A stretch of 45,437 nucleotides of DNA from Planctomycetota bacterium (GCA_947455805.1 CANGSN010000002.1:1-45437); one strand, 5' to 3'. Positions 2,800 through 29,305 are shown, counted from the stretch's first letter. Notes: generated from the sequence alone by a model not told the origin. Numbers and translations: made by a program.

Positions 2800-3578
2800 A
2801 AGCGCAGACCGCCGCCGATCATGAAGCCGGAGACGGTCAGGTCGGTGTCGATCGTGTCGCCGTCGATCTCGCCGTCGACCTGCAGGTTCAGCGAGCGGTA
2901 GCCGGCGAACAGCGACAGCATCGCCGTCGGGTGCACCTGCAGCAGCGCCTCGATGTCGAGCAGCTTGCCGTCGACGTCGTCGATGCCGTACTCCATGTAG
3001 CCGAGCTCGAGCAGCGCGCTGACGATGCCGAGGTCGACCTCGCCGCGCAGGAAGCCGAGCGGCACCGGCGCCTGCAGCTGCACGTTCTCGGTCTGGATGC
3101 CGAGGCCGTCGCGCACGGTCAGGTCGATGTCGAACCAGTCGACCGCGATGCCGGGCGAGATCGCGACCGGGCCGAGCGAGATCTGGAAGGCGTAGGCGCC
3201 CTTCACGTTGGTGAAGTCGAGCTCCGAAGAGACCGGCACGCCGCCGGGGATCGAGATGCCGCCGATGCTGGTGCCGATGTCGCCGAAGTCGGCCTGCAGC
3301 ACGCCGTTCCCCGACTCGGAGAACTGGAACGCCGAGACGCTGAGCACCGGCACGCCGGTGTCGAGCGCCGCACGCACGTAGGGCGCACCGCGGTCGTCAC
3401 CGAGGCCGATCGCACTCTCGACGTCCTGGCGCACGGCGACCGAGTTGGTGCCGTTCACGTAGCCGATGTCGCCGCTGACGGCCATCTGTGCGTAGCCGAC
3501 GTTGCCCGACAGCGCGAGCTGGTAGCACGACGGCAGGATGCTGGTCGCCAGCAGTGCCGCGAAGAGAGGAAGTCGCAT
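2796..3578 (-). CDS. outer-membrane beta-barrel protein (260 aa)
   Basis: From the internal ATG at 3578-3576 of track ORF 2796..3806. It has a signal peptide (MRLPLFAALLATSILPSC), alternating Gly/aromatic beta-strand-like sequence, and the C-terminal ...GGGLRF ending in Phe that is typical of OMPs. It lies 8 bp downstream of the lipoprotein gene. Confidence 0.75.
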   Translation of the reverse strand: MRLPLFAALLATSILPSCYQLALSGNVGYAQMAVSGDIGYVNGTNSVAVRQDVESAIGLGDDRGAPYVRAALDTGVPVLSVSAFQFSESGNGVLQADFGDIGTSIGGISIPGGVPVSSELDFTNVKGAYAFQISLGPVAISPGIAVDWFDIDLTVRDGLGIQTENVQLQAPVPLGFLRGEVDLGIVSALLELGYMEYGIDDVDGKLLDIEALLQVHPTAMLSLFAGYRSLNLQVDGEIDGDTIDTDLTVSGFMIGGGLRF

Positions 3579-3586
3579 GGAGTGGC

Positions 3587-4411
3587 TCACGGGACGTAGG
3601 TCAGTTCGCGTTGGGCGATGTCGAACAGGAAGCGCCCGGTGACGCCGGTGACGGTGATCGCCGCCACCGCAGTGCCATCGAAGGTCACGCTGGCGGAGAC
3701 GGTCGCCAGGGGTCCGGCGAGCGTGAAGTCGATCGTGCCGACCGGGTAGCTCTGCAGCGGCGCGTCGTCGAGGGCGAGGCTCGCCGTCGAGAACGTGATC
3801 GCGCACACCGGCGGACCGCTGTCGGTGATCGTGCTCGACGCCGCCGGCGGCGGGCCACCCGCGGGCGTGCTGGAGGTCGTGCGGACCTCGAGCAGGCGAT
3901 CCTGCGAGCCGCTGCGGCCAAGGATGCCGGTGACGTTGCCACTGCCGGCGATGCCGCCGCCACTCAGGGTCCAGGAGCCGACCAGGAAGCTGTCGCCGCT
4001 CGGGAAGCTGGTGCGAAGTTCGTCGGCCGCGATGTCGACGAGGTCGTTCAGATCGCCCCCGTTCGAGAACCCCGACAAGGCGAGGTTCTGGACCACGCCG
4101 GTCGGGCTGTAGAAGCGGATCGTCATCGCCAGCGTGGTGCCGCCGAGCGAGTAGCTCAACGTCACCGAGCCGTCGCCCTGTTCGGCGACCGAGCCGAGGC
4201 CGCTCGGGTTCGGGATCGACGAGCCGCTGGCGAGGCGCCAGGCGTCGACGACGTCCAGCAGTTGCTCCACCTTGTCGTAGAGGTTCGGGAAGCAGTCGCT
4301 CAGCGTCTCGAAGCGCGCCTGCTGCTGAGGATCGGTGGTCGACGTGACCTTGCTGTCGCAGCCGGTCAGCAGCGTGGCGGCCAACAGGCCGGCGAAGAGG
4401 GCTTTCTGCAT
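3587..4411 (-). CDS. lipoprotein, function unknown
   Basis: MQKALFAGLLAATLLTGC carries a lipobox (LTGC). The mature part is Ser/Thr/Gly-rich. A GAGGA Shine-Dalgarno lies about 7 nt upstream of the ATG. It probably forms an operon with the OMP gene. Confidence 0.8.
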   Translation of the reverse strand: MQKALFAGLLAATLLTGCDSKVTSTTDPQQQARFETLSDCFPNLYDKVEQLLDVVDAWRLASGSSIPNPSGLGSVAEQGDGSVTLSYSLGGTTLAMTIRFYSPTGVVQNLALSGFSNGGDLNDLVDIAADELRTSFPSGDSFLVGSWTLSGGGIAGSGNVTGILGRSGSQDRLLEVRTTSSTPAGGPPPAASSTITDSGPPVCAITFSTASLALDDAPLQSYPVGTIDFTLAGPLATVSASVTFDGTAVAAITVTGVTGRFLFDIAQRELTYVP

Positions 4412-4574
4412 GGGGGGTCCTCGGAGGGAAAAGGGGAGCGAGAGCTCCGCCGGGTATCGACAGGAAGCGGAAGCCGCCTCAACCGCCGAACAACCTTTTC
4501 ACCCCATGCCACCGTCGGTTCCGCACCGACGACCACGAATCCGCGCCCCCTCGCGGCGCGCGCCGCCGCGGCCT

Positions 4575-4608
4575 CAGAGGCTGAGAGAGAATCCTCTCGA
4601 AGCCTCTG
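4575..4608 (-). other. imperfect hairpin in the trx-lipoprotein intergenic region
   Basis: CAGAGGCTGAGAGA / GAATCC loop / TCTCGAAGCCTCTG: 14-nt arms with a 2-nt internal mismatch. Confidence 0.4.
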
Positions 4609-4640
4609 CGCGGCTGCGAATGCAGCCGCCAAACATGCTT

Positions 4641-4678
4641 CTGAGAGCCCGTAGCATGATTTTCTCTCGGGCTCTCAG
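4641..4678 (-). terminator. putative intrinsic terminator hairpin downstream of the thioredoxin-like gene
   Basis: A perfect 11-bp inverted repeat, CTGAGAGCCCG (4641-4651) and CGGGCTCTCAG (4668-4678), with a 16-nt A/T-rich loop. It overlaps the stop codon at 4675-4677. There is no long U-tract. Confidence 0.45.
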
Positions 4679-5970
4679 CCGCCAGCCGGCGCGAGCTTCA
4701 GCGGCTTCACCGCCTTCTTCGAATCCTTGCGCTCGCGGTCCATCTCGTCGCGCTTCTGCTGGTCCGCCGCGGCCTTCTGCAGCGTCGCGTCGTCGATCTT
4801 CACGCCGGCCTTGTGCAAGGCGCCCTCGAGCAGCACCTCACCCTTCATGTAGCCGATCACCTGCGCCGCGATCTTGCCGTCCTTGCCGATCACGAACTGG
4901 TGCGGGATGCCGCCGACGCCGTAGAGCGAACGCGAAGCGCGGTCCTCGCCGCGCGCCTTGGCGTCGTGCGCGAAGATCACGTCCGGATACTTCGCCGCGT
5001 TCTCGGCGACGAACTCCTCGAACTCCTCGCGGCCGTCGTTGGTGCACGAGGCGATCACGACGACGCCCTTGTCCTTCCACTGCTTCGCCACTTCCTGCAG
5101 GTGCGGCAGCGCCGCCTTGCACGGACCGCACCACGTCGCCCAGAAGTCGAGCACGACGACCTTGCCGGCGTGGTCGGCGAGCTTCACTTCCTTGCCGGCC
5201 GCGTCCTTCATGACGAAATCGGGGGCTGTGGCACCGTCGGCGATCGCCGTCACCGGCTTCTCGACCGGGCGCGGGGCCTTCTTCGCCCAGAACTCGGCGG
5301 GCGGCACCTGCGGCGGCATGTGCGCGGCCTCGAGCTTCACCCCGCCCTTCAGCAGCAGGTTGGCAAGGCCGTCGAAGCGGCGGTCGCCGTCGCCGACGAG
5401 GCGGAAGCTGCCGACCACGCGCTGCTCGCCGTCGACCACGAACAGGGCCGGCAGCGGCGGCGTCATGCCGCCGCCGAACATCGAGCCGAGCAACGTCGTC
5501 TTGTGGTGCGCCATGCGCGCGTCCTGGTCGGTCGGTTCGCCGTCGAACGGCGCCACCGGGTCGCAGACGACGGTCACCGGCGCCTTCGCCGCACCTTCCT
5601 TCGCCCACGCAGCCCATGCGTCGGGCTTGGCCCAGTTGACGATGGCGACGGTGTCGACGCCGTAGCCGTGGAAGCGCGTGTGCACCTCACCGAGTTCGGC
5701 CAGCAAGCCCGGCGCGTTCGTGCGGCCGTCGAGCGGCACCATGGCGACGACGAGCGTCTTGCCCTTGTGCTGCGACAGCAGCCACGGCGAGCCGTCGGCG
5801 CGCACGGCCTTCACCTCGGGCAGCGCGTCGCCGCAGTGGTAGCGGAGCAGCGCCGGCCAGAAGCTCGGCGGCTGCTTCGCCGGCTTCGGCGCGGCGGCGG
5901 GTTCTTGGGCCAGGGCCAGCGGGGCGCAGAGCACCACCGTGGAGAGGAGACGCAGGGTCGTGGCGATCAT
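4675..5970 (-). CDS. secreted TlpA/ResA-like thiol-disulfide oxidoreductase with two thioredoxin-fold domains
   Basis: From the internal ATG at 5970-5968, with a signal peptide (MIATTLRLLSTVVLCAPLALAQE). The C-terminal domain has VVLDFWATWCGPCK (a WCGPC active site). The N-terminal redoxin-like domain has no CxxC. Confidence 0.88.
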   Translation of the reverse strand: MIATTLRLLSTVVLCAPLALAQEPAAAPKPAKQPPSFWPALLRYHCGDALPEVKAVRADGSPWLLSQHKGKTLVVAMVPLDGRTNAPGLLAELGEVHTRFHGYGVDTVAIVNWAKPDAWAAWAKEGAAKAPVTVVCDPVAPFDGEPTDQDARMAHHKTTLLGSMFGGGMTPPLPALFVVDGEQRVVGSFRLVGDGDRRFDGLANLLLKGGVKLEAAHMPPQVPPAEFWAKKAPRPVEKPVTAIADGATAPDFVMKDAAGKEVKLADHAGKVVVLDFWATWCGPCKAALPHLQEVAKQWKDKGVVVIASCTNDGREEFEEFVAENAAKYPDVIFAHDAKARGEDRASRSLYGVGGIPHQFVIGKDGKIAAQVIGYMKGEVLLEGALHKAGVKIDDATLQKAAADQQKRDEMDRERKDSKKAVKPLKLAPAGG

Positions 5971-6028: not shown

Positions 6029-6997
6029 TCAGAACAGCGTGATGCGCAGGCCGTTCGAGAAGACGAACGGCAACGGGTCGGTGCTCCCGACGTCGAGCGC
6101 AGCGAACTGCGCGCCGACGACGACACCGATCATCGAGGGACCACCCGGCAGCGGCAGCGCCACCCACGCGTGGCCGCTGGCGCCGGCGGCGTGCGACGCC
6201 TGCTGGTTGCCGCTGCCGATGGCGACACCGACCAGCACCACGGGATCGACGTTCAGCTGGCAGCCGCTCGGCGCACCGGGCAGCGGGATGCCGACCCACG
6301 ATGGATCGACGCCGAACGCGACGAGCCCGAGGCCGCCGGGCGGCAAGCCGGTCGCTTCGAACCGGAAGTTCGCGTTGCCGATCGTCGGCGCGTGGTTGGT
6401 GAACACCGCCGGGAAGCTCGGCGTCGTGCTCGCGCAACCGAAGCCGATCGTGGTCACGCCCTGGCCGTCGAGCTGCGAGCAGTAGCCGCGCCACTTCAGC
6501 GGCTGCTGGGCCGCCTGCAGCACCCAGTTGCCGCCGACGAAGCGGGCGAACGCCGTGGTCGTGCCGCCGGGCTCGTACGGCAGGCGGTTCGAACCGCCTT
6601 CGCGCCAGACCAGCCAGTAGTTCGTGGCGCCCGTGAGCTGCACCAGCTGGTCGAAGTTGGCGCCGTGCCAGCCGAGCGACAGCGTCGCCTGCGTCTGCCA
6701 CGTGCCGCCACCGAGTCGCGCGTTCGGCAGGCCGTTCGCGCCTTCGTCCCAGATCTCGAGCGTCTGGTAGCCGGAGGACGACGCGAACGAGTTCGAGGTG
6801 AAGATCTCGGCCGCCATCAGCAGCTGGGACGACGCCGGCGTGACGCGGTAGGCGAAGGTGCTCGGACCGGCGAAGCTGGTCGCCGTGATGGCGGTGCCGA
6901 CGAGCGAGGTCGTGTCGTTGAGGGAGATGCAGGGAGTCTGCGCCGCGACGAACGTGGACGAGACGAACAACGCGCTGGCGAGCGAGCGAAGGAGCAT
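6029..6997 (-). CDS. secreted hypothetical protein carrying the shared C-terminal module
   Basis: From the internal ATG at 6997-6995, with a signal peptide (MLLRSLASALFVSSTFVAAQT). The last ~138 aa (GFGCAST...PSGCQLNVDP...FSNGLRITLF) match the C-termini of four other proteins in the window. Confidence 0.8.
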   Translation of the reverse strand: MLLRSLASALFVSSTFVAAQTPCISLNDTTSLVGTAITATSFAGPSTFAYRVTPASSQLLMAAEIFTSNSFASSSGYQTLEIWDEGANGLPNARLGGGTWQTQATLSLGWHGANFDQLVQLTGATNYWLVWREGGSNRLPYEPGGTTTAFARFVGGNWVLQAAQQPLKWRGYCSQLDGQGVTTIGFGCASTTPSFPAVFTNHAPTIGNANFRFEATGLPPGGLGLVAFGVDPSWVGIPLPGAPSGCQLNVDPVVLVGVAIGSGNQQASHAAGASGHAWVALPLPGGPSMIGVVVGAQFAALDVGSTDPLPFVFSNGLRITLF

Positions 6998-7446
6998 GGG
7001 GCCTCGAGGAGCGGGGATGGGACGGCCGACGAAGGGCCGCACGCTACCCGGAGCTGCGACGACCGCGATTCCCGAGGCGTCAGGGATCTGTCCCGGCGCG
7101 GGGCGCGCGCCGTTCCGGCCGCCGCGGGAACGCTTGCGCCAGGCGAAGTGCAGGTTCGGCAGCGTCTCGGGAACGTCCAGCGCCTGCACCCTACCTCCCC
7201 GTTCTCCACGCCCCGGCGACCGAACCGATCACCGGCCTGCGCGGCTCGACGCTGCGCGGCCTGACGCGCAGCATCACGCGCCACGCCATCGCCGACTTGA
7301 ACGGCGGCGAACTCGGCGCCGAAGCGGGCACCACGTCGCCGCCCGCCGCATGGTCGCGGCCCGCTACCGCTACGAGGGCACGGTGTCGCTCGGCCAGTCG
7401 ATGAAGATCGCGGCGGGGCAGCCCTGATCCGATGGGCTCGGATCGA

Positions 7447-9255
7447 TCACTGCAGCATGCGGTCGACGTCGGCGAGGATGGCGTCAGCCCAGGTCTGGTA
7501 CGCCGCGGCACTGAGGTGCAGGAAGTCCGGCATCACGTCCTTGGCGATGCGGCCGTCGGCGCCGACGAACTTCGCCGCGAGGTCGCGCCGCACGACGCGC
7601 GCATCGCCGGCGAACGCCGCGGCCGCTGCGGCGCTCGCGGCCGCGCACTTCTGCCGCTGCGCGTCGTTGGTCTCGCTGCGCGGGAACACGTCGAGCAGCA
7701 GCACGTTCGCGTCCGGCAACGCCTGCCGCAGCCGCCGCACGACGGTGACGATGCCGGCGGCGATCTCGTCGGCGGTGCACTCGTCGCCGTTGCTGTTGTT
7801 GGTGCCGATCATGACGACGATGGCGCGCACGTCGTTGTTCGCCGCCTTCAGCGCCTCGAGCAGGCCGCCACCTTGCGGGCCGCCATCGAGCCGCCACAGC
7901 ACGTGCTGCGTCTTGTCGCCGGAGACGCCGAGGTTCAGCGCGCGCCGCGGCACCCAGAACTCGTCCCAGCACGCCTTGCCGGTGCTGCCCCAGCCCTGCG
8001 TGATCGAGTCGCCGACCATCACCAGGCGATGGCCGCCGGCGCGCGCCGCCGCGAGGTCCTGCGCGACACGCTTGTCCCACCATTCGTCGAGGCGCGCCGT
8101 CGGCCGCACCGTGCCCGGCGGCCGATCCGGCACCGGCGACGGCGTCTTCGCCTTGTCGTCGAGCTCGGCGAGCGTGAACCGCACGCTGCGCACGAACGGT
8201 GCTTCGCCCGGTTCGAAGTGCCCGTACGACGTCACCACGAACGTGCCGTCCGCCAGCACCTCGACACCCGGATAGCCGCAGTCGCTGCCGCGCCAGTTGC
8301 GCGACAATCGCACGCGGTACTGCCCAGGCCGCGCGTTGGCGACGTCGTCGAACGTGCCGACCCACGCCACCCAGTCGCCGCGCGTCGGGCTGTCCTTCGC
8401 CATGTCGCGGAACGACAGCACGAGCCGCCCGTCACCCGCGTAGGCGCCGACGTGGCGATCGCCGGTCAGGCTCGCCGGCAGTTCGACCGGCGCCGACCAC
8501 GTGACCGCTTCGTCGTCGGAGACGCACACGTGGCTGTTCTTCGCCCGCCGGTTCTCGCGCAGCAGCATCGCCAGGCGTTTGCCGTCCGGCGAGCGCACGA
8601 CGCCGGGCTCGCACAGGTGCACGTCGCTGCCCTGCCACAGCACGCGCGGCGCACTCCAGCTGCGCCCACCGTCGCTCGAGTTGGTCTGGTAGAGCGTGAA
8701 CGCACCGCGCTTGCTGCCCGGCTGTTCCCAGCGGCCGTCGTCGTGGAAGAACGCGGCGTGCTCGCCGTTCGCCAGCCGCACGACGCTCGCCATCGCGACG
8801 ATGCCGCCGAAGTCGAACACCGGCTCGAGCTCGCTCCACGTCGCCCCGTCGTCCTCCGAACGCGCCATGCGGATCGGCCGCAGGCCGGAGAACAGCACGA
8901 GGCGCGCCACACCGTCGCGATCGACCAAACGGTGGATCGTCGGCGTCTCCTGGCTCGTCGCCCAGCTCGCCGGCACCGGCAGCGGCGCGCTCCACGTGCG
9001 ACCGCCGTCGCCACTCTTCTGCAGCACGATGGCGCCCTTGCCGTGGCCTTCGGGATGCACGCAGAACATCGTCTGGCCGTCGGGCAGCAGCACCGTCGTC
9101 GGATGGCCCTGGTACTTGCGGGCCACGCGATGCACGGTGACCTGCCGCGCGCTGTCGCCTTCCAGGTCGACGAACGCCGGCGGCGACTGGGCCAGACCGG
9201 CACGGAACAGCGACGCCGCCGCGAGCAGCGGCAGCACGACGGACGAGAGGCGCAT
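7447..9255 (-). CDS. BNR/Asp-box sialidase-like domain fused to an SGNH/GDSL hydrolase domain
   Basis: Signal peptide. Four Asp-box motifs (SGDGGRTW, SEDDGATW, SSDGGRSW, SDDEAVTW). The C-terminal ~200 aa carry SGNH blocks: GDSITQGW, GVSGD, GTNN, and DFLHLS at the end. Confidence 0.9.
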   Translation of the reverse strand: MRLSSVVLPLLAAASLFRAGLAQSPPAFVDLEGDSARQVTVHRVARKYQGHPTTVLLPDGQTMFCVHPEGHGKGAIVLQKSGDGGRTWSAPLPVPASWATSQETPTIHRLVDRDGVARLVLFSGLRPIRMARSEDDGATWSELEPVFDFGGIVAMASVVRLANGEHAAFFHDDGRWEQPGSKRGAFTLYQTNSSDGGRSWSAPRVLWQGSDVHLCEPGVVRSPDGKRLAMLLRENRRAKNSHVCVSDDEAVTWSAPVELPASLTGDRHVGAYAGDGRLVLSFRDMAKDSPTRGDWVAWVGTFDDVANARPGQYRVRLSRNWRGSDCGYPGVEVLADGTFVVTSYGHFEPGEAPFVRSVRFTLAELDDKAKTPSPVPDRPPGTVRPTARLDEWWDKRVAQDLAAARAGGHRLVMVGDSITQGWGSTGKACWDEFWVPRRALNLGVSGDKTQHVLWRLDGGPQGGGLLEALKAANNDVRAIVVMIGTNNSNGDECTADEIAAGIVTVVRRLRQALPDANVLLLDVFPRSETNDAQRQKCAAASAAAAAAFAGDARVVRRDLAAKFVGADGRIAKDVMPDFLHLSAAAYQTWADAILADVDRMLQ

Positions 9256-9324
9256 GCCGCACTCGTAGCGGCTCGGCCCGCCGAGGGGAATCCGAGCTCC
9301 GCGTTCTCCCGCACGGGCGAACTG

Positions 9325-10122
9325 CTACCGCGCCCCCGGAACGACGAACGAGCAACTCGCCCAGTAGCTCTCGTACTCGTGCGTCTCGACCTGCGGCCGC
9401 GTCATGTGCACCAGTCGCAGCGTCATCCAGCCGGGCTGTGCGATCGGCACGAGCGCCTCCCCTGCATCGTTGGTCCAAGTCGATCCCGCGATGTCCTCGC
9501 CGTTGCCCGGCAGGTCCCAGCCCAGCAGCGCACCCGCCAGTGGTTCGCCGGCGAACAGCACGAGCGTCCGCAAGGTGCGTCGCGGCTCGATCAGCGTCGG
9601 ATCCTCGAGCGGCACGATCTCCAGCGCCTGACCGACCGGTTCGGCGAAGCGACCTTTCCCGGCGCCCGTGCGGAACACGACCTTCGCGCACTTGCGGTAT
9701 CGCTCGGTCGCGTCGCGGCCTTCCTCGTGCGTATCCATGCGCGCTGCGAGCACCTTGGGCAGCCCTTCGTGCAGCAGGTAGTCGTTGAACTTGCGGGCGT
9801 CCAACGCGAGCAGCTGGGGCGCGGTGTCGCAGGTGGCGACGACCACTCCCGAAGACAGCGCCCCGAGATCGTGCGCGGTGGCCTTCGTGTCCGCATCGGC
9901 TCGAAAGCGCAGCAGCGCCTCCCGCGCCCCGTCGGGCCGCACGAGCCGCCCGGTCACGTTCGCGACGACGACGGCGTTGTCGCTCTCGGGAAAGGACATC
10001 CCAGTGCGCAGCGAGAGGCCGACGATCGCCCGATCGGCGCCCTCCACGGTCAGCAGCCAAGTCTCGTGTTTCGGCGAGCCGACGACGGCGACGACGAAGA
10101 TCGAGAGCGTGCGGCAGAGCAT
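9325..10122 (-). CDS. DUF4198-like periplasmic protein
   Basis: From the internal ATG at 10122-10120. A short signal sequence is followed by SPKHETWLL, the H-x-x-W start typical of mature DUF4198 proteins. It has beta-rich sequence and lies upstream of the sialidase-like gene on the same strand. Confidence 0.75.
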   Translation of the reverse strand: MLCRTLSIFVVAVVGSPKHETWLLTVEGADRAIVGLSLRTGMSFPESDNAVVVANVTGRLVRPDGAREALLRFRADADTKATAHDLGALSSGVVVATCDTAPQLLALDARKFNDYLLHEGLPKVLAARMDTHEEGRDATERYRKCAKVVFRTGAGKGRFAEPVGQALEIVPLEDPTLIEPRRTLRTLVLFAGEPLAGALLGWDLPGNGEDIAGSTWTNDAGEALVPIAQPGWMTLRLVHMTRPQVETHEYESYWASCSFVVPGAR

Positions 10123-10310
10123 GCTCGGGAAGGTGCGCGCGCAGGAATTCGTGTCGGCGAAACGCGCCCGAAGTCGCGAGGCTGCCCGACATGGGCGCGT
10201 CCGTGTGCACATCCCGATCGCTTCTGTCCCTCACCCACAGCGACCATGCAATCCGCTGCTGCTCGCTGCTCGCCGCGAAGTACTTGATCGGCCCTCACCT
10301 GACTGATCGG
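9965..10310. repeat. copy A of the duplicated DUF4198/DUF4394 junction (left flank of the insertion)
   Basis: Hand alignment with 13141-13500 gives long identical blocks (gacgatcgcccg, ggtcagcagccaagt, ttcggcgag, cgacgacggc, gtgcggc.gagcatgct, cccgaagtcgcgag, gcccgacatgg, gcgaccatgc.atcc, gctgctcgccgc, tgatcggcc). Several indels separate the blocks. Confidence 0.75.
10246..10287 (+). pseudogene. remnant of the 5' end of a DUF4394-type gene
   Basis: atgcaatcc...gctgctcgccgc...tgatcggcc aligns with the start of the intact gene at 13409 (atgcgatcc...gctgctcgccgc...ctgatcggcc). It has deletions and reads MQSAAARCSPRST before a stop. Confidence 0.5.
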
Positions 10311-10375
10311 ATCTCAAGATGCGCGCTGCATTCGGCACATGGACATAAAGTCTCTGTGCAAGTCTTGCGGCGACT

Positions 10376-12004
10376 TTAGTTGCTAGGCTCCAATATGAAC
10401 TTCATGGTACCAATCGATGAGATCACTCCGCCCGAGGTCGCGCTGGCGCTGCCGAGCCGAACTTGTAGCGGCCGGTAGCCGTCCGACTCCAAGGAGTACG
10501 ACTGCACCTCGCTTTCGAGCACCAATGTGATGCTGCCGGCCGAATCAAAGAATCCTGAGGCGACTACGGGATCACCGAGAGCAGGAGTTTCGACACGCAT
10601 GGTGTAACCGGTTACTGGCATGCCACAACTATCCTCCACGGACATGCGCACGGGTCGGCAGGGAAACTTCGACACCACTTCTACCATAGATCGCTGACCG
10701 GCTACAACATTCAATTGCAATGGCAACTGCAGACACTTTGCGGTGACCTCATCTGGCGACATCAAGATGTATTCACCATCGGGGACGCGAAGGCCGCTCG
10801 GGGACACGACCTTGGCGAAGCGAGGTTCGCCACGCCGAACTGCGATCAAATGTGGCATAAGTCCTGCATCGCAATCGACGCCGGTTAACAATAACTGGAC
10901 CTCCCCCGTTCGGTCTCCCCCACCCCCGGCAGAAATTCTGGTCGGAACAAGTCGCTCAAGCCGGCTAGCACTGAGCGTCGCACTGCCCCAGCCACCCTGG
11001 CGACAGTAGTAGTCCAAGCGAACAACCGGCTCACCAGCCCCCGCCGGCGGCGCGAACACGGCCACTATGGATTGGGGGTATCGCCTCCTTATTTCGTCAG
11101 CGTGGCGGCTGTAGGTCGACAGTGTTCGCCCAATGACCGCCGGCATAGACGTGTAGGTCCAAGTGTGGTAGAGAATCTCAGCGTCAAGTTCCACTGCTAC
11201 ACCGACAAGAGGCGCGAGAGTCACGTCAAGGGTGGTTGCCTCCCCAGCTCTGATGGTCATCAGCAGGCTTCTTGCATCGAACACCTCAACGCAACCATCG
11301 AGCCGCGCCTCAACGTGGTGGATACCAGGAAACAGAGCAGGAAACACCGCTTCGCCCTGAACACATGACGCCCACGCGGCCGCGCTCGGCGAGTCCAACA
11401 TCAGCCCCCCGATCCATTCTTCACGGGCGTTCAGAGAGCTAGTAGGTTGGCGTGACACGGTGACCGTGGCGCCGCGCGGCAACGAGCCATCTACCATTCG
11501 CACCTGCACATGCGCCGAGCCAGAACGAGTTGCGCGCAGCACGATGTCGCCAACTAGCGGCGACCACCTAGCCGGAGCAACCACATGCGATGACGCTTTG
11601 CCGACAACCCATTCTGGAGCCACAGCATCTGCATTGACTTCGATGGCCCCCTGAGCGTCACTCACCCCCATCCATCTGATGACGCTTGCAGCCATACACC
11701 GCTCAGTGATCGGCCCATTCAACGTCCCAATCTCGACCCCGGGAACGGCCTTGCCCTCCTCGTCACGAACCAAGATTCGAACGGCCTTCGTGGGGATCTC
11801 GCGGTTTAGAACTGCGTAATGATCGAGGGGGCGGAACTCGCCGGACTGCGGCATGGCCACTTCGGACCCCACGTACCTCGCCGCCGGTGCAGCCTCTTTG
11901 ATGGCCGGATCGGCAAGCTGTTGGTCGTAGCCCCAGCAGCTGATGCCCCACATGACGCCCACCAACGCCAACAAGAGCACAAACACGCGCATGACCGTAT
12001 TCAT
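10376..12004 (-). CDS. membrane-anchored protein with carboxypeptidase-regulatory-like (Ig-like) repeats, on the lower-GC insertion
   Basis: Start taken at the ATG at 12004-12002, which overlaps the upstream stop as ATGA. The N-terminal anchor is MNTVMRVFVLLLALVGVMWGISCW. Repeated segments have the form VRILVRDEEGKAVPGVEIGT, VQVRMVDGSLPRGATVTVS and VRMSVEDSCGMPVTGYTMRVET. Third-position GC is clearly lower than in flanking genes. Confidence 0.8.
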   Translation of the reverse strand: MNTVMRVFVLLLALVGVMWGISCWGYDQQLADPAIKEAAPAARYVGSEVAMPQSGEFRPLDHYAVLNREIPTKAVRILVRDEEGKAVPGVEIGTLNGPITERCMAASVIRWMGVSDAQGAIEVNADAVAPEWVVGKASSHVVAPARWSPLVGDIVLRATRSGSAHVQVRMVDGSLPRGATVTVSRQPTSSLNAREEWIGGLMLDSPSAAAWASCVQGEAVFPALFPGIHHVEARLDGCVEVFDARSLLMTIRAGEATTLDVTLAPLVGVAVELDAEILYHTWTYTSMPAVIGRTLSTYSRHADEIRRRYPQSIVAVFAPPAGAGEPVVRLDYYCRQGGWGSATLSASRLERLVPTRISAGGGGDRTGEVQLLLTGVDCDAGLMPHLIAVRRGEPRFAKVVSPSGLRVPDGEYILMSPDEVTAKCLQLPLQLNVVAGQRSMVEVVSKFPCRPVRMSVEDSCGMPVTGYTMRVETPALGDPVVASGFFDSAGSITLVLESEVQSYSLESDGYRPLQVRLGSASATSGGVISSIGTMKFILEPSN

Positions 12005-12462
12005 GGAATCTTGCAGGTACAGGCATCGGTCCACGCAAGACCCACCGGCAGTTGCTTGATGCACTTCTGGCTCGGTGGGGGCGTCGTGGCCGGACAGAGA
12101 TCGGGGTTGTCAATCCAGCACTCCCATGTAGGGTTTCGCCCTGCGCCATCCACACGCAGGGTGGCGTTGCAGGCCTTGGCAGCATCGACGTGGCCCGTAG
12201 GGTTGTTCGCCCGATTTGCGCAGACACACTTCCACTCAGTGAAGGTCGAGCCATCCGTCGTGGTCACAGTAGCGCAGAAGTTGTATGGAGCCGCGTAAGT
12301 GCTGCAATCACCGATACAAGATCCGATGTAGTAGCCACCCACGTGCTGTATCTGCAGCCTGCAGTCGCCCGCAGCCGGGACCAACAAGGACTTTGCACCG
12401 ATCATGGCTATCCCAGCGAAGACCAAGGAAATGGAACGCATGAAGATATCTGATTTGAGCAT
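12001..12462 (-). CDS. small secreted cysteine-rich protein (12 Cys)
   Basis: Signal peptide (MRSISLVFAGIAMIGAKSLL). The mature part of about 120 aa has 12 cysteines (GDC, GSCIGDC, NFC, WKCVC, KAC, WECW, DLC, QKC, DACTC). I recognise no family. The alternative start is the ATG at 12441. Confidence 0.75.
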   Translation of the reverse strand: MLKSDIFMRSISLVFAGIAMIGAKSLLVPAAGDCRLQIQHVGGYYIGSCIGDCSTYAAPYNFCATVTTTDGSTFTEWKCVCANRANNPTGHVDAAKACNATLRVDGAGRNPTWECWIDNPDLCPATTPPPSQKCIKQLPVGLAWTDACTCKIP

Positions 12463-12511
12463 GATTCGTTCGGGTTATCTGTAGATTCTTTAAGGGTTTA
12501 ATGAACCGACA

Positions 12512-12952
12512 TCAAGCTAGATTGTGCCTTGGCGTGCTTTGCCTGAATCGCATTGCCAGCGCGTAACTCGACCAACCGCCCAACAATCCCGCAGCAACGA
12601 GACGTTGCGCTTGACTCAGCTCATAGAGCCGCCCCAGGCAGCCACAGGGTTGGTCACCTGCCGCCAACCCTATCACGACGAAGCCGACAGCCAGTGCGAG
12701 GGTGGCCCAAAGCGCCACCCTCCAAAGAGACGTCAGCAACGTCACGCCGATCAGAGCTTCGAACAAGCAGACCACAGTCAAGGAAGCGCTCGAAATCAGA
12801 TCCGCACCAAGCGTCAACTTGGCGGTAGAGAGAAAGAGCAAGAGCACCGACAGACCTTGCCGATGCCTCAGAATGGCTCGTGACCGTCGCATGTCTTCCA
12901 TGACAGACTGATCGCCATCGAACAGGATGGCCTTCGACTTCGATCTCCGCAC
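12512..12952 (-). CDS. MauE/DoxX-like small integral membrane protein
   Basis: Four predicted TM helices, with a PCGCLG motif after helix 3 that resembles the CGCFG motif of MauE-family proteins. The start is ambiguous: GTG at 12952, ATG at 12901, or ATG at 12892. Confidence 0.65.
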   Translation of the reverse strand: MRRSKSKAILFDGDQSVMEDMRRSRAILRHRQGLSVLLLFLSTAKLTLGADLISSASLTVVCLFEALIGVTLLTSLWRVALWATLALAVGFVVIGLAAGDQPCGCLGRLYELSQAQRLVAAGLLGGWSSYALAMRFRQSTPRHNLA

Positions 12953-12995
12953 TCAACCCACCCCATGCAGCGGGGCCGACTTATTTGAGAGCTTT

Positions 12996-13024
12996 TGTGC
13001 AGTAGACGGTAAACAACCCCCGCG
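12996..13024 (-). promoter_or_regulatory. sigma-70-like promoter candidate for the insertion operon
   Basis: On the minus strand: TTGACG (13024-13019), a 17-nt spacer, then TACCGT (13001-12996), about 40 nt upstream of the GTG at 12952. Confidence 0.35.
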
Positions 13025-13140
13025 CCTTCGTCAATCTTTTCCCTACATTCTCTAAGCAACCTCCCCGCAATTTCTTGTAGCGCCTCCCGGATCATTCATT
13101 CGTGCTTCCTGTTCCAGAGCTGAAGTAGTACCCCTGGAAG

Positions 13141-13301
13141 CCGGACGTTGTCGCCCTCGGGGCACGACACTCCGGTGCGCAGCGAAAGCTCGACGATCGC
13201 CCGGCGCCCTCGACGGTCAGCAGCCAAGTGTCGCGCTTCGGCGAGTCGACGACGGCAACCGGGGCGGCGGAGGCGACCAGCGAATGCGTGCGGCGGAGCA
13301 T
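13141..13301 (-). pseudogene. truncated, frameshifted 5' fragment of a DUF4198-type gene
   Basis: It reads MLRRTHSLVASAAPVAVVDSPKRDTWLLTVEGAGR, then shifts frame. The other frame continues AIVELSLRTGVSCPEGDN. Compare the intact gene: SPKHETWLLTVEGADRAIVGLSLRTGMSFPESDN. Homology ends at about 13141. Confidence 0.65.
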
Positions 13302-13500
13302 GCTGGGTCCGGTGCGCGGGCAAGCGGAACGAACCCGAAGTCGCGAGATAGCCCGACATGGTCGCGGTGGCCCGCACCTCCCGGTAGCTCCTCCAACCCG
13401 AAGCGACCATGCGATCCAAACTCCCCCACCTGCTCCTCCCGCTGCTCGCCGCCCCCGTCGCGGCGCAAAGCCTGATCGGCCTGTCGTCCGACAACCGCCT
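13141..13500. repeat. copy B of the duplicated DUF4198/DUF4394 junction (right flank of the insertion)
   Basis: See copy A. It holds the decayed DUF4198 5' end, the divergent intergenic region, and the intact start of the DUF4394 gene. Confidence 0.75.
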
Positions 13501-15334
13501 GATCCCGCTGCGCACCACGGCGCCGCTGGCCGCCGGTCCCACCGTCGCGATCACCGGCCTGCAACCGGGCGAGGCGATGCTGGCGATCGATTTCCGCCCC
13601 GCGAACGGCCGCCTCTACGGCTTCAGCTCGCAGGGCCGCCTCTACACGATCACCGCCGCGTCCGGCGCCGCGGCCGCCGTCGGTTCGCCGATCCCGATGC
13701 CCGCCGGCACCGAGTGCGGCTTCGACTTCAACCCGACCATCGACCGCATCCGCCTGGTCAGCGACGCCGGCGTCAACCTGGTGCTCAACCCGGACACCGG
13801 TGCTTTGCAGGCGACGCAGACGCCGCTGGCGTTCGCGGCGACCGATCCGAACGCGGGCTTCGCGCCGAACGTCGCCGCTTCCGCCTACACCAACAACGTC
13901 GCCACGGCGACGACGACGGTGCTCTACAACCTCGACGCCGCGCGCGACGTGCTGACGACGCAGATCCCGCCGGGTGCGGGCACGCAGAACACCGTCGGCA
14001 GCCTCGGCCGCGACGTCACCGCGGTCGCCGGCTTCGACATCGCAGCCAACGGCACCGCCTACACAGCACTCAACACGAACGGCGCCGCGAGCGGCACGAC
14101 GCAGCTGTTCACGGTGGATCTCTCGAACGGTTCGCTGACGTGGCTCGGCATCGTGCCGAACCCGAATCCGACGGCGCGCCTGCGCGGCCTCGCCGCCGTG
14201 CCGCCGGGCGCCGACGTCGAGGTCGTGGTGCTGACCGGCGACGGCCGCCTCGCGCGCTTCGACGCCACGTCGCCGTGGCAGGTGCCGACCGTCGCCAACG
14301 TGCAGGGCTTGCTCGCCAACGACAGCCTGGTCGCGATCGACTTCCGCCCGGCCACCGGCGAGCTCTACGGGCTCGGCGCGCTGGGCCAGCTCTACGTCGT
14401 CGACGCGCAGAGCGGGCAGGCGACGGCGATCGGCAGCGGCTTCGCCGCGGCGATGCAGGGCACGCGCTTCGGCTTCGACTTCAACCCGACCATCGACCGC
14501 ATCCGCCTCGTCAGCGACGCCGGCATCAACCTGGTGCTCAACCCGATCACCGGCGCGCTGCAGGCGACGCAGACGCCGCTGCAGTTCGCGGCGACCGACG
14601 TGCACGCGGGAACGATGCCGCAGGTGTTCGCCAGCGCCTACACGAACAACCTCGCCGGCGCGGTGACGACGGTGCTCTACGGCCTCGATGCGACGAACGA
14701 CGCGCTGGTCAGCCAGATCCCGCCGGGTGCCGGCACGCTGAACACGATCGGCAGCGGCCTCGGCTTCGACGTCGGCACCGTCGGTGGCTTCGACATCGGC
14801 GCCGACGGCATCGCCTACGCAGCGCTCGGCAGCAGCCCGCAGCAGTCGGTGCTGCACCGCATCGACCTGCAGCTCGGCACGTCGACCAACATCGTCGACC
14901 TGCGCGCAGCCCTCGGTGCCGCGGTCCTCGGTGTCGCCGTGCGCAACCCCGTCGGCATCGACGCCTTCGGCACCGCCACCAACGGCTGCGCCGGCCCCGC
15001 CTGGCTCGGCGCCGCCGGCACTCCGTTCGCCGGCAGCACGCAGTTCACCGTCGTCGCGCACAACGCGGCGCCGAACACGCTCGGCTTCTTCGTGCTGGCG
15101 GCGGACCGCCTGCCGATGGCGCTCGACATCGGCGGCCTGCAGGCGTGGATCGACCCGAACCAGCACGTCGTGGTGGCGATGCGCGCCCACGACGCCGCCG
15201 GCCGCGCGTCGCTGGTGATGCCGCTGGCCGGCGCCTGGTTCGGCCTGCCGACCTACTGGCAGTGGATCGGCCTCGACGTCTGCGGCCCGATGGGCCTCGC
15301 GACCTCGGCGGCGATGCGCGTCATCGTGCAGTGA
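13409..15334 (+). CDS. secreted protein with two tandem DUF4394 domains plus the shared C-terminal module
   Basis: Signal peptide (MRSKLPHLLLPLLAAPVAAQS). The pattern LAIDFRPANGRLYG...FGFDFNPTIDRIRLVSDAG.NLVLNP.TGAL occurs twice. The last 122 aa (TNGCAGP...AAMRVIVQ) are the shared module. Confidence 0.9.
   Translation: MRSKLPHLLLPLLAAPVAAQSLIGLSSDNRLIPLRTTAPLAAGPTVAITGLQPGEAMLAIDFRPANGRLYGFSSQGRLYTITAASGAAAAVGSPIPMPAGTECGFDFNPTIDRIRLVSDAGVNLVLNPDTGALQATQTPLAFAATDPNAGFAPNVAASAYTNNVATATTTVLYNLDAARDVLTTQIPPGAGTQNTVGSLGRDVTAVAGFDIAANGTAYTALNTNGAASGTTQLFTVDLSNGSLTWLGIVPNPNPTARLRGLAAVPPGADVEVVVLTGDGRLARFDATSPWQVPTVANVQGLLANDSLVAIDFRPATGELYGLGALGQLYVVDAQSGQATAIGSGFAAAMQGTRFGFDFNPTIDRIRLVSDAGINLVLNPITGALQATQTPLQFAATDVHAGTMPQVFASAYTNNLAGAVTTVLYGLDATNDALVSQIPPGAGTLNTIGSGLGFDVGTVGGFDIGADGIAYAALGSSPQQSVLHRIDLQLGTSTNIVDLRAALGAAVLGVAVRNPVGIDAFGTATNGCAGPAWLGAAGTPFAGSTQFTVVAHNAAPNTLGFFVLAADRLPMALDIGGLQAWIDPNQHVVVAMRAHDAAGRASLVMPLAGAWFGLPTYWQWIGLDVCGPMGLATSAAMRVIVQ
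13718..13858 (+). repeat. internal repeat unit 1 of the DUF4394 gene
   Basis: About 141 nt that are close to 90% identical by hand count to 14471-14611, at an offset of 753 nt (251 codons). Confidence 0.8.
14471..14611 (+). repeat. internal repeat unit 2 of the DUF4394 gene
   Basis: See 13718-13858. Confidence 0.8.
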
Positions 15335-15367
15335 TCGCGTGCGGGGTCCACGTGGCCCCGGCGGTCG

Positions 15368-15730
15368 TCACAGGCCGACGACGACCTGGAAGCCGCCGTA
15401 CGACATCTTCTTGATGTCGAACGGCATCGGCCCATCCGCCAGCTTCGCCATGCGCTTGTCGGCCATCACCGCGGTGTTGACCGCGTCGCGGTGCGCCTTC
15501 GACTTGAAGGTGACGAACGAGAACAGCACCGTCTCGGTGCTCTTGCACTTCGCGCGCTTCGGGAACGGCATGCCGCCGCCCTTCGGATGGTCGTCGCCGA
15601 CGCATTCGTAGAAGCCCAGCGCGCCGTGCGCCTTCCACAGGCGCCCCGCCTTCTTCGCCAGCGTCACGTAGTCGGCGAGCTTCTTCTTCGCGACCACGAC
15701 CAGGAATCCGTCGACATACTTGGACTTCAT
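15368..15730 (-). CDS. DUF1428 family protein (YbaA-like)
   Basis: From the internal ATG at 15730. MKSKYVDGFLVVV...WKAHGALGFYECVGDD...VLFSFVTFKSKAHRDAVN...MPFDIKKMSYGGF matches the DUF1428 pattern. 120 aa. Confidence 0.88.
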   Translation of the reverse strand: MKSKYVDGFLVVVAKKKLADYVTLAKKAGRLWKAHGALGFYECVGDDHPKGGGMPFPKRAKCKSTETVLFSFVTFKSKAHRDAVNTAVMADKRMAKLADGPMPFDIKKMSYGGFQVVVGL

Positions 15731-15796
15731 GCGGCATGCATACCCGATGGCCGCTCGGATCCGCAGCATCGTCGCCGATGGACACCTGGACCATGG

Positions 15797-15985
15797 TCAG
15801 CGCGAGCGCGCGACATGCTCCGCCCACCACGCCGGCAGCGACGGATTGAACCGCTGCCACGCGACGCCGTGGTAGTCCGCGCGCCGCAGCTGCACGCCGA
15901 CGAGGACCGCTGCCAGGAGCAGGCTGCCGACGACGAACCATGGCCACGTCGGCGGAGCGGCGCGGGCGCGGCAGCGAGCGCTCAG
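15797..15985 (-). CDS. possible small single-TM protein with a non-canonical (CTG) start
   Basis: A high-GC3 frame reads ...TWPWFVVGSLLLAAVLVGVQLRRADYHGVAWQRFNPSLPAWWAEHVARSR before a stop. There is no ATG/GTG/TTG before the helix. The CTG at 15985-15983 overlaps the TGA of the upstream gene (CTGA). It is not in the ORF track. Confidence 0.25.
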   Translation of the reverse strand: MSARCRARAAPPTWPWFVVGSLLLAAVLVGVQLRRADYHGVAWQRFNPSLPAWWAEHVARSR

Positions 15986-26964: not shown

Positions 26965-27678
26965 CTAATCAGGCCGCTCGACCTGCTCCCATTCGAGCCC
27001 GGCTACCTTCGCGAGCTCGAGCACTCGTTCGAACGGCCGAGAGTCCAAGGCGGTCGCCCACAAACAGAGCCCCTCCTGCGTTTCGACGACGAGGTCGGCA
27101 TCGCCGTAGAGCCGCACTGGTTCGAAGAACCAGGGAATGTCGAGAACCGGCAAGCGCGGCAGGTGCTCGACGATCGCAGCGCAGACGGATTCCTGGGCCG
27201 CCACGCCGTAGGCGCGGAAGAGCGTTCGGGGCGAGTTCTTCACCCCGAGAAGCAACCACCAGACCGCCAGGTCGCAGATGCTCGGCGCTGCCTGACGCAG
27301 GTTCCGCTCGTCGTCGGCGAGGAGCACCACAGCGGGGTCCGTCTCGTGCAATGCCGCCAAGGGGATCGCCCATCGATGCACTCCCTGGTTCTCGCAGGCA
27401 ATCACCAGATGTCCCTGGTCGACGCACAGTTCGTGCGGCGCATACAGAACGTCCTGCACGTTCCACGCATCGGTGCGATGCCCGAATCGCTCGTGGAGCT
27501 CGCGCAGGGCGGCCGGCAATGCAAAGCCGAGCCGCGCTTCGGCTCGGTCCAGTTCGCCGGGCTTCGTCGTCGGTGCGGCCCCATCGCCATACCAATCGGA
27601 GAGCAACCCCGCGACGTGGCGCCACTTCGCTTCACGTGCAGACGATCCACCCGACGCGGAGTCCTCGATGCGTGTCAT
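26965..27678 (-). CDS. SMI1/KNR4 (SUKH-1) family immunity-like protein
   Basis: ELDRAEARLGFALPAALRELHERFG is the characteristic SMI1_KNR4 N-terminal motif. 237 aa with no signal peptide. Confidence 0.78.
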   Translation of the reverse strand: MTRIEDSASGGSSAREAKWRHVAGLLSDWYGDGAAPTTKPGELDRAEARLGFALPAALRELHERFGHRTDAWNVQDVLYAPHELCVDQGHLVIACENQGVHRWAIPLAALHETDPAVVLLADDERNLRQAAPSICDLAVWWLLLGVKNSPRTLFRAYGVAAQESVCAAIVEHLPRLPVLDIPWFFEPVRLYGDADLVVETQEGLCLWATALDSRPFERVLELAKVAGLEWEQVERPD

Positions 27679-27688
27679 GCAGCAGCCT

Positions 27689-28135
27689 TCATAGCCCCTT
27701 GACGACCCGCACTGGGCTCGTCGAACCGTCCAGACAGAAGCTCACCACCATCCACATGCGATCGAACACGAACCCGCGCCTCTGCAGCCCCACGTAGTAG
27801 CCGAGCTCGGCTTCTTCGACCCGCGCTTCCGGCTCCGATTCGCCGAGCATCGCCACGATCTCGGCGCGCGTTCGCCCCTTCCACGACCCCACAGCCATCA
27901 TGCAATCCAGCATCGCGAAGCGAACGCCCTCAGCGACGCACGCCGGATCGCGCCAGCGCACAGGGTCGAAGTTGCACCCGGGGTAGACGATCGGCCTGAG
28001 CGCGCTGGCGACGATCACGAGCACGCAGAAGCCGGCGAGCCAGGCCAGGGAGCGCGGAATCGCGACTCCATCGGAGCGCAGCGCAGCTCGCAATCCCGCC
28101 GAAGCCGTCACGGCATCTGAGGCCCTGAGTCTCAT
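27689..28135 (-). CDS. membrane-anchored hypothetical protein (BamE/SmpA-like small domain?)
   Basis: One TM helix (LAWLAGFCVLVIVASAL). The segment WKGRTRAEIVAMLGE...LGYYVG...MVVSFCLDG resembles the SmpA/OmlA fold pattern. It lies 10 nt upstream of the SUKH gene. Confidence 0.6.
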   Translation of the reverse strand: MRLRASDAVTASAGLRAALRSDGVAIPRSLAWLAGFCVLVIVASALRPIVYPGCNFDPVRWRDPACVAEGVRFAMLDCMMAVGSWKGRTRAEIVAMLGESEPEARVEEAELGYYVGLQRRGFVFDRMWMVVSFCLDGSTSPVRVVKGL

Positions 28136-28161
28136 GGGAGCTCGTCGTTCCTACACCCGCC

Positions 28162-28848: not shown

Positions 28849-28906
28849 CTTCGCACGTCGTGTTCACGCATCCGCCGCGAGCGGCGTTGCGGCGCTGGCC
28901 GGCTGC

Positions 28907-29305
28907 TCAGGTTGCGAACCGCCAGAAGCTGTCGTCTCTCCAGACACAAGCGACGAACCAGATCAGGTTGCCTGTGTCCAGCAGCAACAAGACGAGGCAC
29001 GCGATGCTCAGGCCAACGTTGGCAGGAGCGAGCAGAAGCCCTGCGACTACTGCCATGCCCACCAACGGAATGCCGGATACGTTGCGGTACCTGCCTCTTC
29101 GCCTCAGAAAGTGATACACGAGAGGGCGTAGGAAGGAGAGGTAGAAGTTGAGGACGCAGATCCACGCGCCCAGGCAGAAGACCGAGTAGGCAAGCACGGT
29201 GCACGAGCCGCCGAAAAGCCTCCGCTCGACGAAGATCGACCCAATCGGCACCGCAAGCAGCAAGAGGACTGCGATGACAGCGATGCTCTTCCGTACGACG
29301 ATCAT
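28907..29305 (-). CDS. small polytopic membrane protein (132 aa)
   Basis: From the internal ATG at 29305, with four hydrophobic helices (IAVIAVLLLLAVPIGSIF, CTVLAYSVFCLGAWICVL, IPLVGMAVVAGLLLA, LSIACLVLLLLD). I recognise no family. Confidence 0.6.
   Translation of the reverse strand: MIVVRKSIAVIAVLLLLAVPIGSIFVERRLFGGSCTVLAYSVFCLGAWICVLNFYLSFLRPLVYHFLRRRGRYRNVSGIPLVGMAVVAGLLLAPANVGLSIACLVLLLLDTGNLIWFVACVWRDDSFWRFAT

Follow-up and report, generated by a model that had tools for sequence, protein, structure and literature searches.

A rare three-gene cassette in a lake planctomycete combines a divergent MauE-like protein, a secreted Cys-rich protein and a membrane-anchored partner

The Locus and Its Three Genes

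The window, by which is meant the whole stretch of 45,437 nucleotides from a Planctomycetota bacterium (GCA_947455805.1, CANGSN010000002.1:1-45437), contains three co-oriented minus-strand genes at 10376–12952, which were located by a scan for open reading frames (ORFs). These genes, called the trio below, encode a small MauE-like membrane protein, a secreted Cys-rich protein and a large protein anchored at its N-terminus. They lie where an earlier reading made from the sequence alone (the sequence-only reading) had placed them; that reading proposed a self-contained module for the oxidative folding and display or delivery of a disulfide-rich protein, an interpretation that is partly supported here. 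The features are as follows.

12512–12952, minus strand: MauE-like membrane protein with four transmembrane (TM) helices; the ORF opens with GTG at 12952, and the likely start is ATG at 12901 (129 amino acids) or 12892
About 12649–12632, minus strand: CGC active-site-like motif (PCGCLG) within the MauE-like gene
12001–12462, minus strand: secreted Cys-rich protein of 153 amino acids; signal at about residues 1–32, mature part of 121 amino acids
10376–12004, minus strand: N-terminally anchored single-pass protein of 542 amino acids; ORF with a TM helix at residues 3–21

The ATG of the anchored-protein gene overlaps the stop codon of the Cys-rich gene in the sequence ATGA (12004–12001, read from the sequence), and the three genes are most likely transcribed as a single unit. 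Scans of the region with Rfam and for tRNAs and tandem repeats were empty. JGI assemblies annotate as a gene a minus-strand ORF of 75 amino acids (12868–13095) that lies upstream of the MauE-like start and overlaps it; lacking any meaningful family match and any equivalent at the other trio loci, this ORF is probably spurious.

Occurrence of the Trio in Other Lineages

The same gene order (MauE-like protein, Cys-rich protein, anchored protein of about 540 amino acids) was found in the window and at L001, L088/L091, L089 and L090. Five lineages in all carry the trio, and the four besides the window are diverged and come without exception from metagenomes. The L001 contig is 1 kb long, holds all three genes and shows the ATGA overlap too. 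Of the three findings that the sequence-only reading had named as refuting it, two are that the three genes never occur together elsewhere and that the Cys-rich ORF has neither homologues nor a coding signal; the recurrence of the trio in the same order and the results for the Cys-rich gene given below dispose of both.

The families are very sparsely represented in sequence collections. A word-indexed search with the Cys-rich protein returned one homologue (P0002, 59% identity), and a HMMER search run exhaustively over 1.84 billion sequences, which represent about 15 billion proteins, added only P0005 and P0006, at expectation (E) values of about 1e-15 and 33% identity to the window protein; P0007, an 839-amino-acid repeat protein from the HMMER search, was discarded as a low-complexity artefact. 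First scans of genomes and metagenomes with a two-sequence alignment of the Cys-rich protein gave no matches, and a scan of metagenome contigs with a four-sequence alignment added L090 and L091. Word-indexed searches with the 542-amino-acid and MauE-like proteins returned self-matches only, and scans of viral contigs with alignments of the Cys-rich and anchored proteins returned none. When plasmids were searched with tblastn, genes 2 and 3 had no match and the MauE-like gene gave only a chance match under an integrase gene. Eight proteins from three lineages had no match at E ≤ 0.1 to the phage protein families of PHROGs or the anti-phage defense families of PADLOC, nothing useful for the trio came from PHROGs, PADLOC or NCBIfam, and no significant match was obtained when PDB sequences were searched with a profile of each of the three families.

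Identity to the window proteins ranges from 59 to 33% for the Cys-rich protein, from 41 to 26% for the MauE-like protein and from 20 to 26% for the anchored protein (the last against L088, L089 and L090A). Comparison of the loci by tblastx gave no coherent match outside the three genes, the one extra fragment being 15 residues inside a chained hit. Synonymous sites are saturated, and the proportion of nonsynonymous differences (pN) is below that of synonymous differences (pS) for all three genes; for the Cys-rich gene of the window and L001, pN is 0.29 and pS is 0.74. That pN stays below pS despite this saturation implies that each of the three is a real gene under purifying selection. GC content is 57–62% at every trio locus. 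Apart from the window, only L001 retains the ATGA overlap, from which translational coupling had been proposed; at that junction the genes of the other lineages are 33–73 nt apart (neighboring-gene gaps in these lineages are 3 to 73 nt), so the overlap itself stands and coupling through it is not conserved. Judged by these comparisons, the trio is a real conserved unit, because the same very rare set of genes recurs in four other lineages.

The genetic surroundings of the trio differ among lineages. Directly downstream of it in L088/L091 lie a transposase fragment of ISKra4-like type and a gene for a tyrosine integrase, whose L088 copy matches Pfam Phage_integrase at E 9.5e-22.

L088 3025–3765; L091 3162–3656 and 3775–4548: tyrosine recombinase and ISKra4-family transposase fragment, downstream of the trio

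In L089 (67–525) and L090 (about 6900–7495), a gene resembling those for sigma factors of the extracytoplasmic function (ECF) type lies directly upstream of the trio and is co-oriented with it; these sigma-like proteins match Sigma70_r2 at E 0.007–0.008, that of L090 matches TIGR02937 at E 7.6e-6, and the two are 28% identical to each other. No sigma gene adjoins the trio in the window or L091. Beside its complete trio, L090 also carries a second, divergent pair on the opposite strand (2948–5758, minus strand) that encodes a secreted protein of 161 amino acids with 12 mature Cys and an anchored homologue of 538 amino acids; the anchored protein of this pair (L090B) is matched to the window anchored family by hhalign (83%, E 9e-6, 284 columns), and its Cys-rich protein gives a weak hhalign match (E 0.003).

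The MauE-Like Membrane Protein

TM helices were detected by a hydropathy scan with a 19-residue window, and topology was taken from hydropathy and the positive-inside rule. TM1–TM3 of the window protein cross the threshold, and TM4 (LVAAGLLGGWSSYALAM) was read from the sequence; the helix homologous to TM4 crosses the threshold in L089. The protein of four TM helices with a PCGCLG motif described by the sequence-only reading is thus confirmed, the fourth helix by eye. In each of the five lineages CGC falls between helices 3 and 4 (within PCGCLG, after TM3, in the window), and the Arg-rich N- and C-termini place this loop, by prediction, on the periplasmic side.

Among Pfam families, MauE (PF07291) is the only one matched by the window protein and by a consensus of the five sequences, and it is the top match for L089 and L090. 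The scores, all below the curated cut-off, are 20.7 bits (E 5.3e-4) for the window protein, 23.5 bits (E 7.4e-5) for L089, 20.9 bits (E 4.6e-4) for L090 and 24.0 bits (E 5.2e-5) for the consensus; the match of the window protein covers most of the MauE model. MauE is required for MauA, the methylamine dehydrogenase (MADH) small subunit, and MauE proteins of two different phyla can stand in for DsbB in E. coli, where a CXC motif (X being Gly or Ala) in the periplasmic loop between TM3 and TM4 is essential for complementation of dsbB; this motif is usually followed by Phe-Gly, and a conserved Lys in TM1 and a conserved Glu in TM2 lie near the predicted quinone site (bioRxiv 10.64898/2026.03.05.709764).

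These hallmarks (the TM1 Lys, the TM2 Glu and C-G-C-[F/L]-G; bioRxiv 10.64898/2026.03.05.709764) are present in all five trio proteins. Lys28, Glu48 and C86-G-C88-x-G90 (window numbering) are invariant in an alignment of four proteins (window, L001, L089 and L088 after repair of its frame), which are 26–41% identical to the window protein, and a second alignment shows the L090 protein with the same Lys, Glu and CGC residues. CGC is followed by Phe in L089 and L088/L091 and by Leu in the window, L001 and L090, and the Gly after that is invariant. On the strength of the Lys, the Glu and C-G-C-[F/L]-G in all five proteins, gene 1 is treated here as encoding a divergent MauE-type protein, and there is a good probability that it works like MauE, though its scores stay below the curated threshold for membership. 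The similarity to MauE, a point on which the sequence-only reading had staked itself, is therefore upheld by the sole Pfam match and the hallmark residues and falls short in score.

The Secreted Cys-Rich Protein

The product of gene 2 was described by the sequence-only reading as a protein of about 150 amino acids with a signal peptide, 12 mature Cys and no recognizable family, and this description holds. An N-terminal hydrophobic stretch, the putative signal peptide, is followed by a conserved junction of the cleavage type, (A/V)xG|D-C-R-L-Q, which fits a signal-peptidase site; the mature protein would begin with DCRLQ. All 12 Cys of the window protein fall within the 121-residue mature part, and ten Cys are invariant across the aligned homologues. 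Mature Cys counts are 12, 12, 14, 14 and 14, with 12 in the second copy of L090, and are even in every case, as expected if every Cys is paired; the protein presumably has six or seven disulfides. Two conserved CxC motifs (79–81 and 148–150) and repeated GDC motifs are also present. Lipoprotein status was rejected, the first Cys being preceded by Asp.

The Cys-rich protein has no match in Pfam, NCBIfam, PHROGs, PADLOC or PDB sequences and none by Foldseek, and its profile found nothing among PDB sequences at E ≤ 10. AlphaFold2 with four sequences gave an all-beta model with a predicted local distance difference test (pLDDT) score of 71 overall and about 80 in the mature part; a Foldseek search with this model gave no PDB match (best E 0.32, template modeling [TM] score 0.24) and none in BFVD. 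A lipocalin or fatty acid-binding protein (FABP) fold was rejected, as it came from Foldseek hits with a TM score of 0.24 to a two-sequence AlphaFold2 model (pLDDT 55). MauA carries 12 Cys in six disulfides, and MADH light chains have solved structures. No MADH small-subunit chain was among the sequence or fold matches, hence no similarity to MauA was detected, and the idea that the Cys-rich protein is a relative of MauA was rejected. The best reading is that it represents a new family and, as far as the model can tell, a new fold.

The Anchored Protein

The 542-residue product of gene 3 is anchored at its N-terminus, as had been claimed: the hydropathy scan gives one N-terminal TM helix (residues 3–21) and no C-terminal anchor. 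It can be aligned over its whole length with the L088 and L089 anchored proteins, at 23–26% identity; in a second alignment, of five proteins, the window protein is 20–23% identical to those of L088, L089 and L090A. Lipoprotein status was rejected here as well, since the Cys is not conserved.

The sequence-only reading took this protein to be built from carboxypeptidase-regulatory-like repeats, which is borne out in part. Segments 62–155, 156–268 and 448–542, three of about five, are mutually related by hhalign (first versus fifth, E 5e-6; first versus second, E 3.6e-4), and CarboxypepD_reg (PF13620) matches all five anchored proteins, at differing positions, with 18.3–24.7 bits (window, 18.9) against a cut-off of 32.3. 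Segments 269–362 and 363–447 are unrelated to the other segments by hhalign, and residues 269–447 match nothing. The best match among PDB sequences, to the fimbrial subunit 7k7f through a motif of the type G-A-F-x-x-L-x-x-G-x-Y, is insignificant (E 0.69). The protein is thus predicted to consist of at least three beta-sandwich modules, transthyretin-like or CarboxypepD_reg-like, flanking a distinct central region (269–447).

The Island and Its Host Context

The trio occupies a low-GC island enclosed by imperfect direct repeats.

10294–13145, no strand: low-GC island, containing only the trio, some 190 bp upstream of it and some 80 bp downstream
9975–10293, no strand: left copy of the flanking repeat, 76% identical to the right copy (Pfam DUF4198)
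13146–13481, no strand: right copy of the flanking repeat, 76% identical to the left copy

The island is 2.85 kb long with 58% GC, in Planctomycetota DNA of 70% GC; along the segment GC is 57–61%, against about 70% in the flanks, and the GC content at third codon positions (GC3) is 0.65–0.68 in the trio genes versus about 0.9 in host genes. The insertion proposed by the sequence-only reading is accordingly upheld by its foreign composition, with boundaries more structured than had been described. In each copy of the flanking repeat (about 320 bp), an intergenic region lies between the 5′ ends of a DUF4198 gene and of a DUF4394 gene. The left one runs on into an intact DUF4198 gene (9325–10212, minus strand) and holds a 48-nt DUF4394 stub (10246–10293, plus strand); the right copy runs on into an intact DUF4394 gene (13409–15334, plus strand) and holds a 155-nt DUF4198 stub (13146–13301, minus strand). 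These repeats look like the scar of a homologous integration (Campbell-type or flank-mediated) from a diverged relative, not a target-site duplication. ORF and tRNA scans found no integrase gene and no tRNA gene in the window. The protein encoded at 13409–15334 has two tandem DUF4394 domains (two stretches in Pfam), with which internal DNA repeats about 750 bp apart agree.

The closest relative of the DUF4394 protein (95% identity) is encoded in L008 (JBILEY010000151.1), from a Planctomycetota metagenome-assembled genome of Lake Mendota; more distant relatives are mostly from Phycisphaerae. The flanks of L008 are 91–95% identical to the window on both sides, with the right repeat copy orthologous to L008 from 13342 rightwards. 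Between the GDSL/BNR gene and the DUF4394 gene, L008 (1065–4417) has 3.3 kb of different DNA of native GC and neither the DUF4198 gene nor the trio. The segment has the attributes of a horizontally acquired genomic island: deviant composition, absence from the close relative L008 and bounding repeats. On this comparison the site between the GDSL/BNR and DUF4394 genes is a variable cargo locus, because L008 holds an unrelated 3.3 kb between the same flanks.

Six metagenome contigs of the same species (L002–L007) carry the island at 99.5–99.9% identity, and the trio ORFs are intact in five of these six assemblies, the sixth (L003) having a frameshift in the MauE-like gene. When L002 was compared with the window over 7349–15882, the stretch 7349–9000 differed by about 7% and the stretch 9000–13500, which includes the DUF4198 gene and the trio, by about 0.2%; this contrast suggests that the DUF4198 gene and the trio were carried on a recently exchanged recombination tract. 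Elsewhere in the window, at about 27000–30400, GC is lower in a second stretch (63–66%), which holds a series of small ORFs on the minus strand; two of these (26965–27678 and 28162–28848) have sub-threshold matches to SMI1_KNR4/SUKH, a family of immunity proteins in polymorphic toxin systems.

Proposed Mechanism and Alternative Explanations

The trio is perhaps best understood, with a probability that we place a little above even, as a mobile envelope module made up of a dedicated DsbB-like oxidase, a six-disulfide client and an anchored beta-sandwich partner. The gene 1 protein would be a four-helix member of the MauE/DoxX superfamily in the inner membrane, with CGC in the periplasmic TM3–TM4 loop, and by analogy with DsbB it would pass electrons from Cys thiols to the membrane quinone and so generate disulfides. 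The probable dedicated client is the gene 2 product, a Sec-exported and presumably all-beta protein of about 121 amino acids with 12–14 Cys. From its one N-terminal helix the gene 3 protein would project a beta-sandwich chain into the periplasm or towards the surface; it would be made together with the gene 2 product and probably serves to bind it, hold it in a scaffold or present it. That gene 1 acts as an oxidase, that gene 2 encodes its client and that the gene 2 and gene 3 products form a complex is all inferred.

Several observations weigh against this proposal. All MauE matches fall under the Pfam curated cut-off of 27 bits (the best reaching 24.0), the L001 fragment and the L091 protein have no Pfam MauE match, and Leu stands in place of the usual Phe after CGC in three of the five lineages. 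The MauE-like gene appears dispensable: the second pair of L090 has no MauE gene of its own, and frameshifted MauE-like alleles accompany intact genes 2 and 3 in L003 (a 1-nt deletion at window position 12681) and in L088 (a single-base indel at about 570–600, compared with the intact L091 gene at 537–950), where either real loss of function or assembly error could be the cause. No trio locus encodes a thioredoxin-fold relay such as MauD or DsbA; the MauE proteins tested so far probably work through such a relay. The better AlphaFold2 model of the Cys-rich protein was built on four sequences, and a promoter motif shared upstream of the trio was sought and not found, as was any promoter or terminator signal. 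It is because of the L090 pair that has no MauE gene, the L003 and L088 frameshifts and the missing relay that the Cys-rich and anchored proteins are taken as the probable functional core, with the oxidase as an accessory that would free the cassette from the disulfide machinery of its recipient.

Other explanations of the same genes were weighed. That the Cys-rich protein is a secreted bacteriocin or toxin, with the anchored protein as immunity factor, receptor decoy or export helper and MauE serving only to fold the toxin, would make the cassette a competition module. The trio's distribution is patchy and very sparse, its composition is foreign and its contexts are mobile, all of which agree with this, as do its tightly linked genes, its small, secreted, disulfide-rich product and the near-identical tract that carries the island in two strains whose flanks differ by 7%; we nevertheless consider it unlikely, given that Pfam, NCBIfam, PHROGs and PADLOC reveal no toxin, bacteriocin, immunity or exporter domain, that the plasmid collection and viral contigs gave no matches, that a 540-residue extracytoplasmic beta-sandwich chain is unlike typical immunity proteins, and that the fold search with the Cys-rich model found nothing toxin-like. 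An ECF sigma gene directly upstream and co-oriented in L089 and L090, with no separate anti-sigma gene between it and the MauE-like gene, raises the alternative that the trio serves sensing or output in an envelope signaling system controlled by an ECF sigma factor, in which the four-TM CGC protein would be a redox-sensitive membrane anti-sigma factor or sensor, not a generator of disulfides, and the other two proteins regulated envelope components. An ECF sigma/anti-sigma module has a sigma gene in every member, and here only L089 and L090 have one, the trio of the window and L091 standing without; all sigma matches are below curated cut-offs, the four-TM protein has no recognizable anti-sigma domain and very short cytoplasmic segments, and the conserved Lys, Glu and CGC fit a quinone-linked oxidase. 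This explanation we regard as improbable.

DUF4198 proteins have been linked to metal uptake, and a DUF4198 gene adjoins the island, which together with the two conserved CxC motifs and the repeated GDC motifs would suit a periplasmic protein that binds a metal or cofactor through thiolates, loaded by redox or sulfur chemistry of the MauE/DoxX-like protein and borne by the anchored protein as carrier. The DUF4198 gene belongs to the host flank and is not beside the trio in L088–L091, the strictly even Cys counts favor disulfide pairing over metal binding, and searches of PDB sequences gave no similarity of the Cys-rich protein to known metalloproteins, so that such a link to metal uptake seems decidedly improbable. 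As for the idea that the three ORFs lie together by accident or are junk decaying in a piece of foreign DNA, to which the extreme rarity of the family, the gene 1 frameshift alleles in two lineages and the missing promoter and terminator signals might point, it is already disfavored and has only a very slight chance of being right: the gene order is kept in five lineages at saturated synonymous divergence with pN below pS for all three genes, Cys and active-site-like residues are invariant, and five of six assemblies from the window's species carry the ORFs intact.

The oxidase–client–anchor module has, finally, a more specific form, which is rather doubtful. A minimal MauE would oxidize one dedicated secreted protein directly, without a thioredoxin-like relay, and this protein, new in fold and holding six or seven disulfides, would form a fixed complex with its anchored partner; the whole would be an undescribed mobile envelope system of bacteria of the Planctomycetes–Verrucomicrobia–Chlamydiae (PVC) type, the complex being a new kind of surface receptor, adhesin or inter-bacterial effector that certain lineages would place under an ECF sigma factor of its own.

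Significance

MauE has newly been proposed as a widespread, generalist generator of disulfides akin to DsbB (bioRxiv 10.64898/2026.03.05.709764). The cassette would offer a natural minimal case, in which one divergent MauE and one obvious six-disulfide client, with no thioredoxin-fold relay, travel together between genomes; being so minimal, it makes the client specificity of MauE directly testable in E. coli. It bears on whether MauE acts on its substrates directly and on why MauE is often found outside mau clusters. Two unannotated families are defined as well, a disulfide-rich protein of 120 amino acids, modeled as all-beta and without structural match, and its anchored partner of 540 amino acids. 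The general biological weight of the module is probably small, because it is rare, with five lineages in all.

Comparison with Known Systems

The sequence-only reading knew of no described system with these three genes. The trio, the Cys-rich family with its putative fold and the anchored family are indeed undescribed in the libraries and literature searched, and a MauE gene beside that of a Cys-rich client is a known principle with precedents in MauA and in candidate clusters of Streptomyces (PMC7794033). Like MauE, the gene 1 protein has four TM helices, CGC in the periplasmic TM3–TM4 loop followed by a hydrophobic residue and Gly, and the Lys of TM1 and Glu of TM2, and its gene lies beside that for a small secreted protein with 12 Cys, much as MauE is linked to MauA. 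It differs in scoring below the gathering threshold and in having Leu for Phe in three of five lineages. The trio also lacks the MauD- or thioredoxin-like partner of the mau cluster, no other mau-like genes (a MauA client, or mauB, mauD or mauG nearby) were found at any trio locus, and neither the sequence nor the predicted fold of the putative client is related to that of MauA.

In the Streptomyces clusters, which decRiPPter proposed as candidates for peptides synthesized by ribosomes and post-translationally modified (RiPPs), mauE homologues lie beside precursor genes with eight or more Cys (PMC7794033). The trio shares with them a MauE homologue outside the methylamine pathway that is clustered with the gene for a Cys-rich product, an arrangement that implies a dedicated disulfide-forming role. 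In contrast to these clusters, the product is a 153-amino-acid protein with a Sec signal, not a short leader–core peptide, tailoring enzymes and transporters are absent, the third partner is a large anchored protein of predicted beta-sandwich modules, and the hosts are PVC-type bacteria, not actinomycetes.

The anchored protein resembles the CarboxypepD_reg (PF13620) and CnaB-type repeats of surface proteins and pilins in its sub-threshold PF13620 matches, internal repeats and fimbrial-type motif. Unlike those proteins, it has 180 central residues that match nothing, an N-terminal helix in place of a sortase or C-terminal signal, and no enzymatic or adhesin domain. With DsbB/DsbA and VKOR the trio would share its chemistry, that of a quinone-linked four-helix membrane oxidase giving disulfides to exported proteins; there is no relation in sequence, and the trio has a CXC motif where those systems have CXXC with a second Cys pair. 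Whereas those systems work with a relay and are encoded by housekeeping genes, the putative oxidase of the trio has no relay and would be an accessory linked to its cargo on a mobile island.

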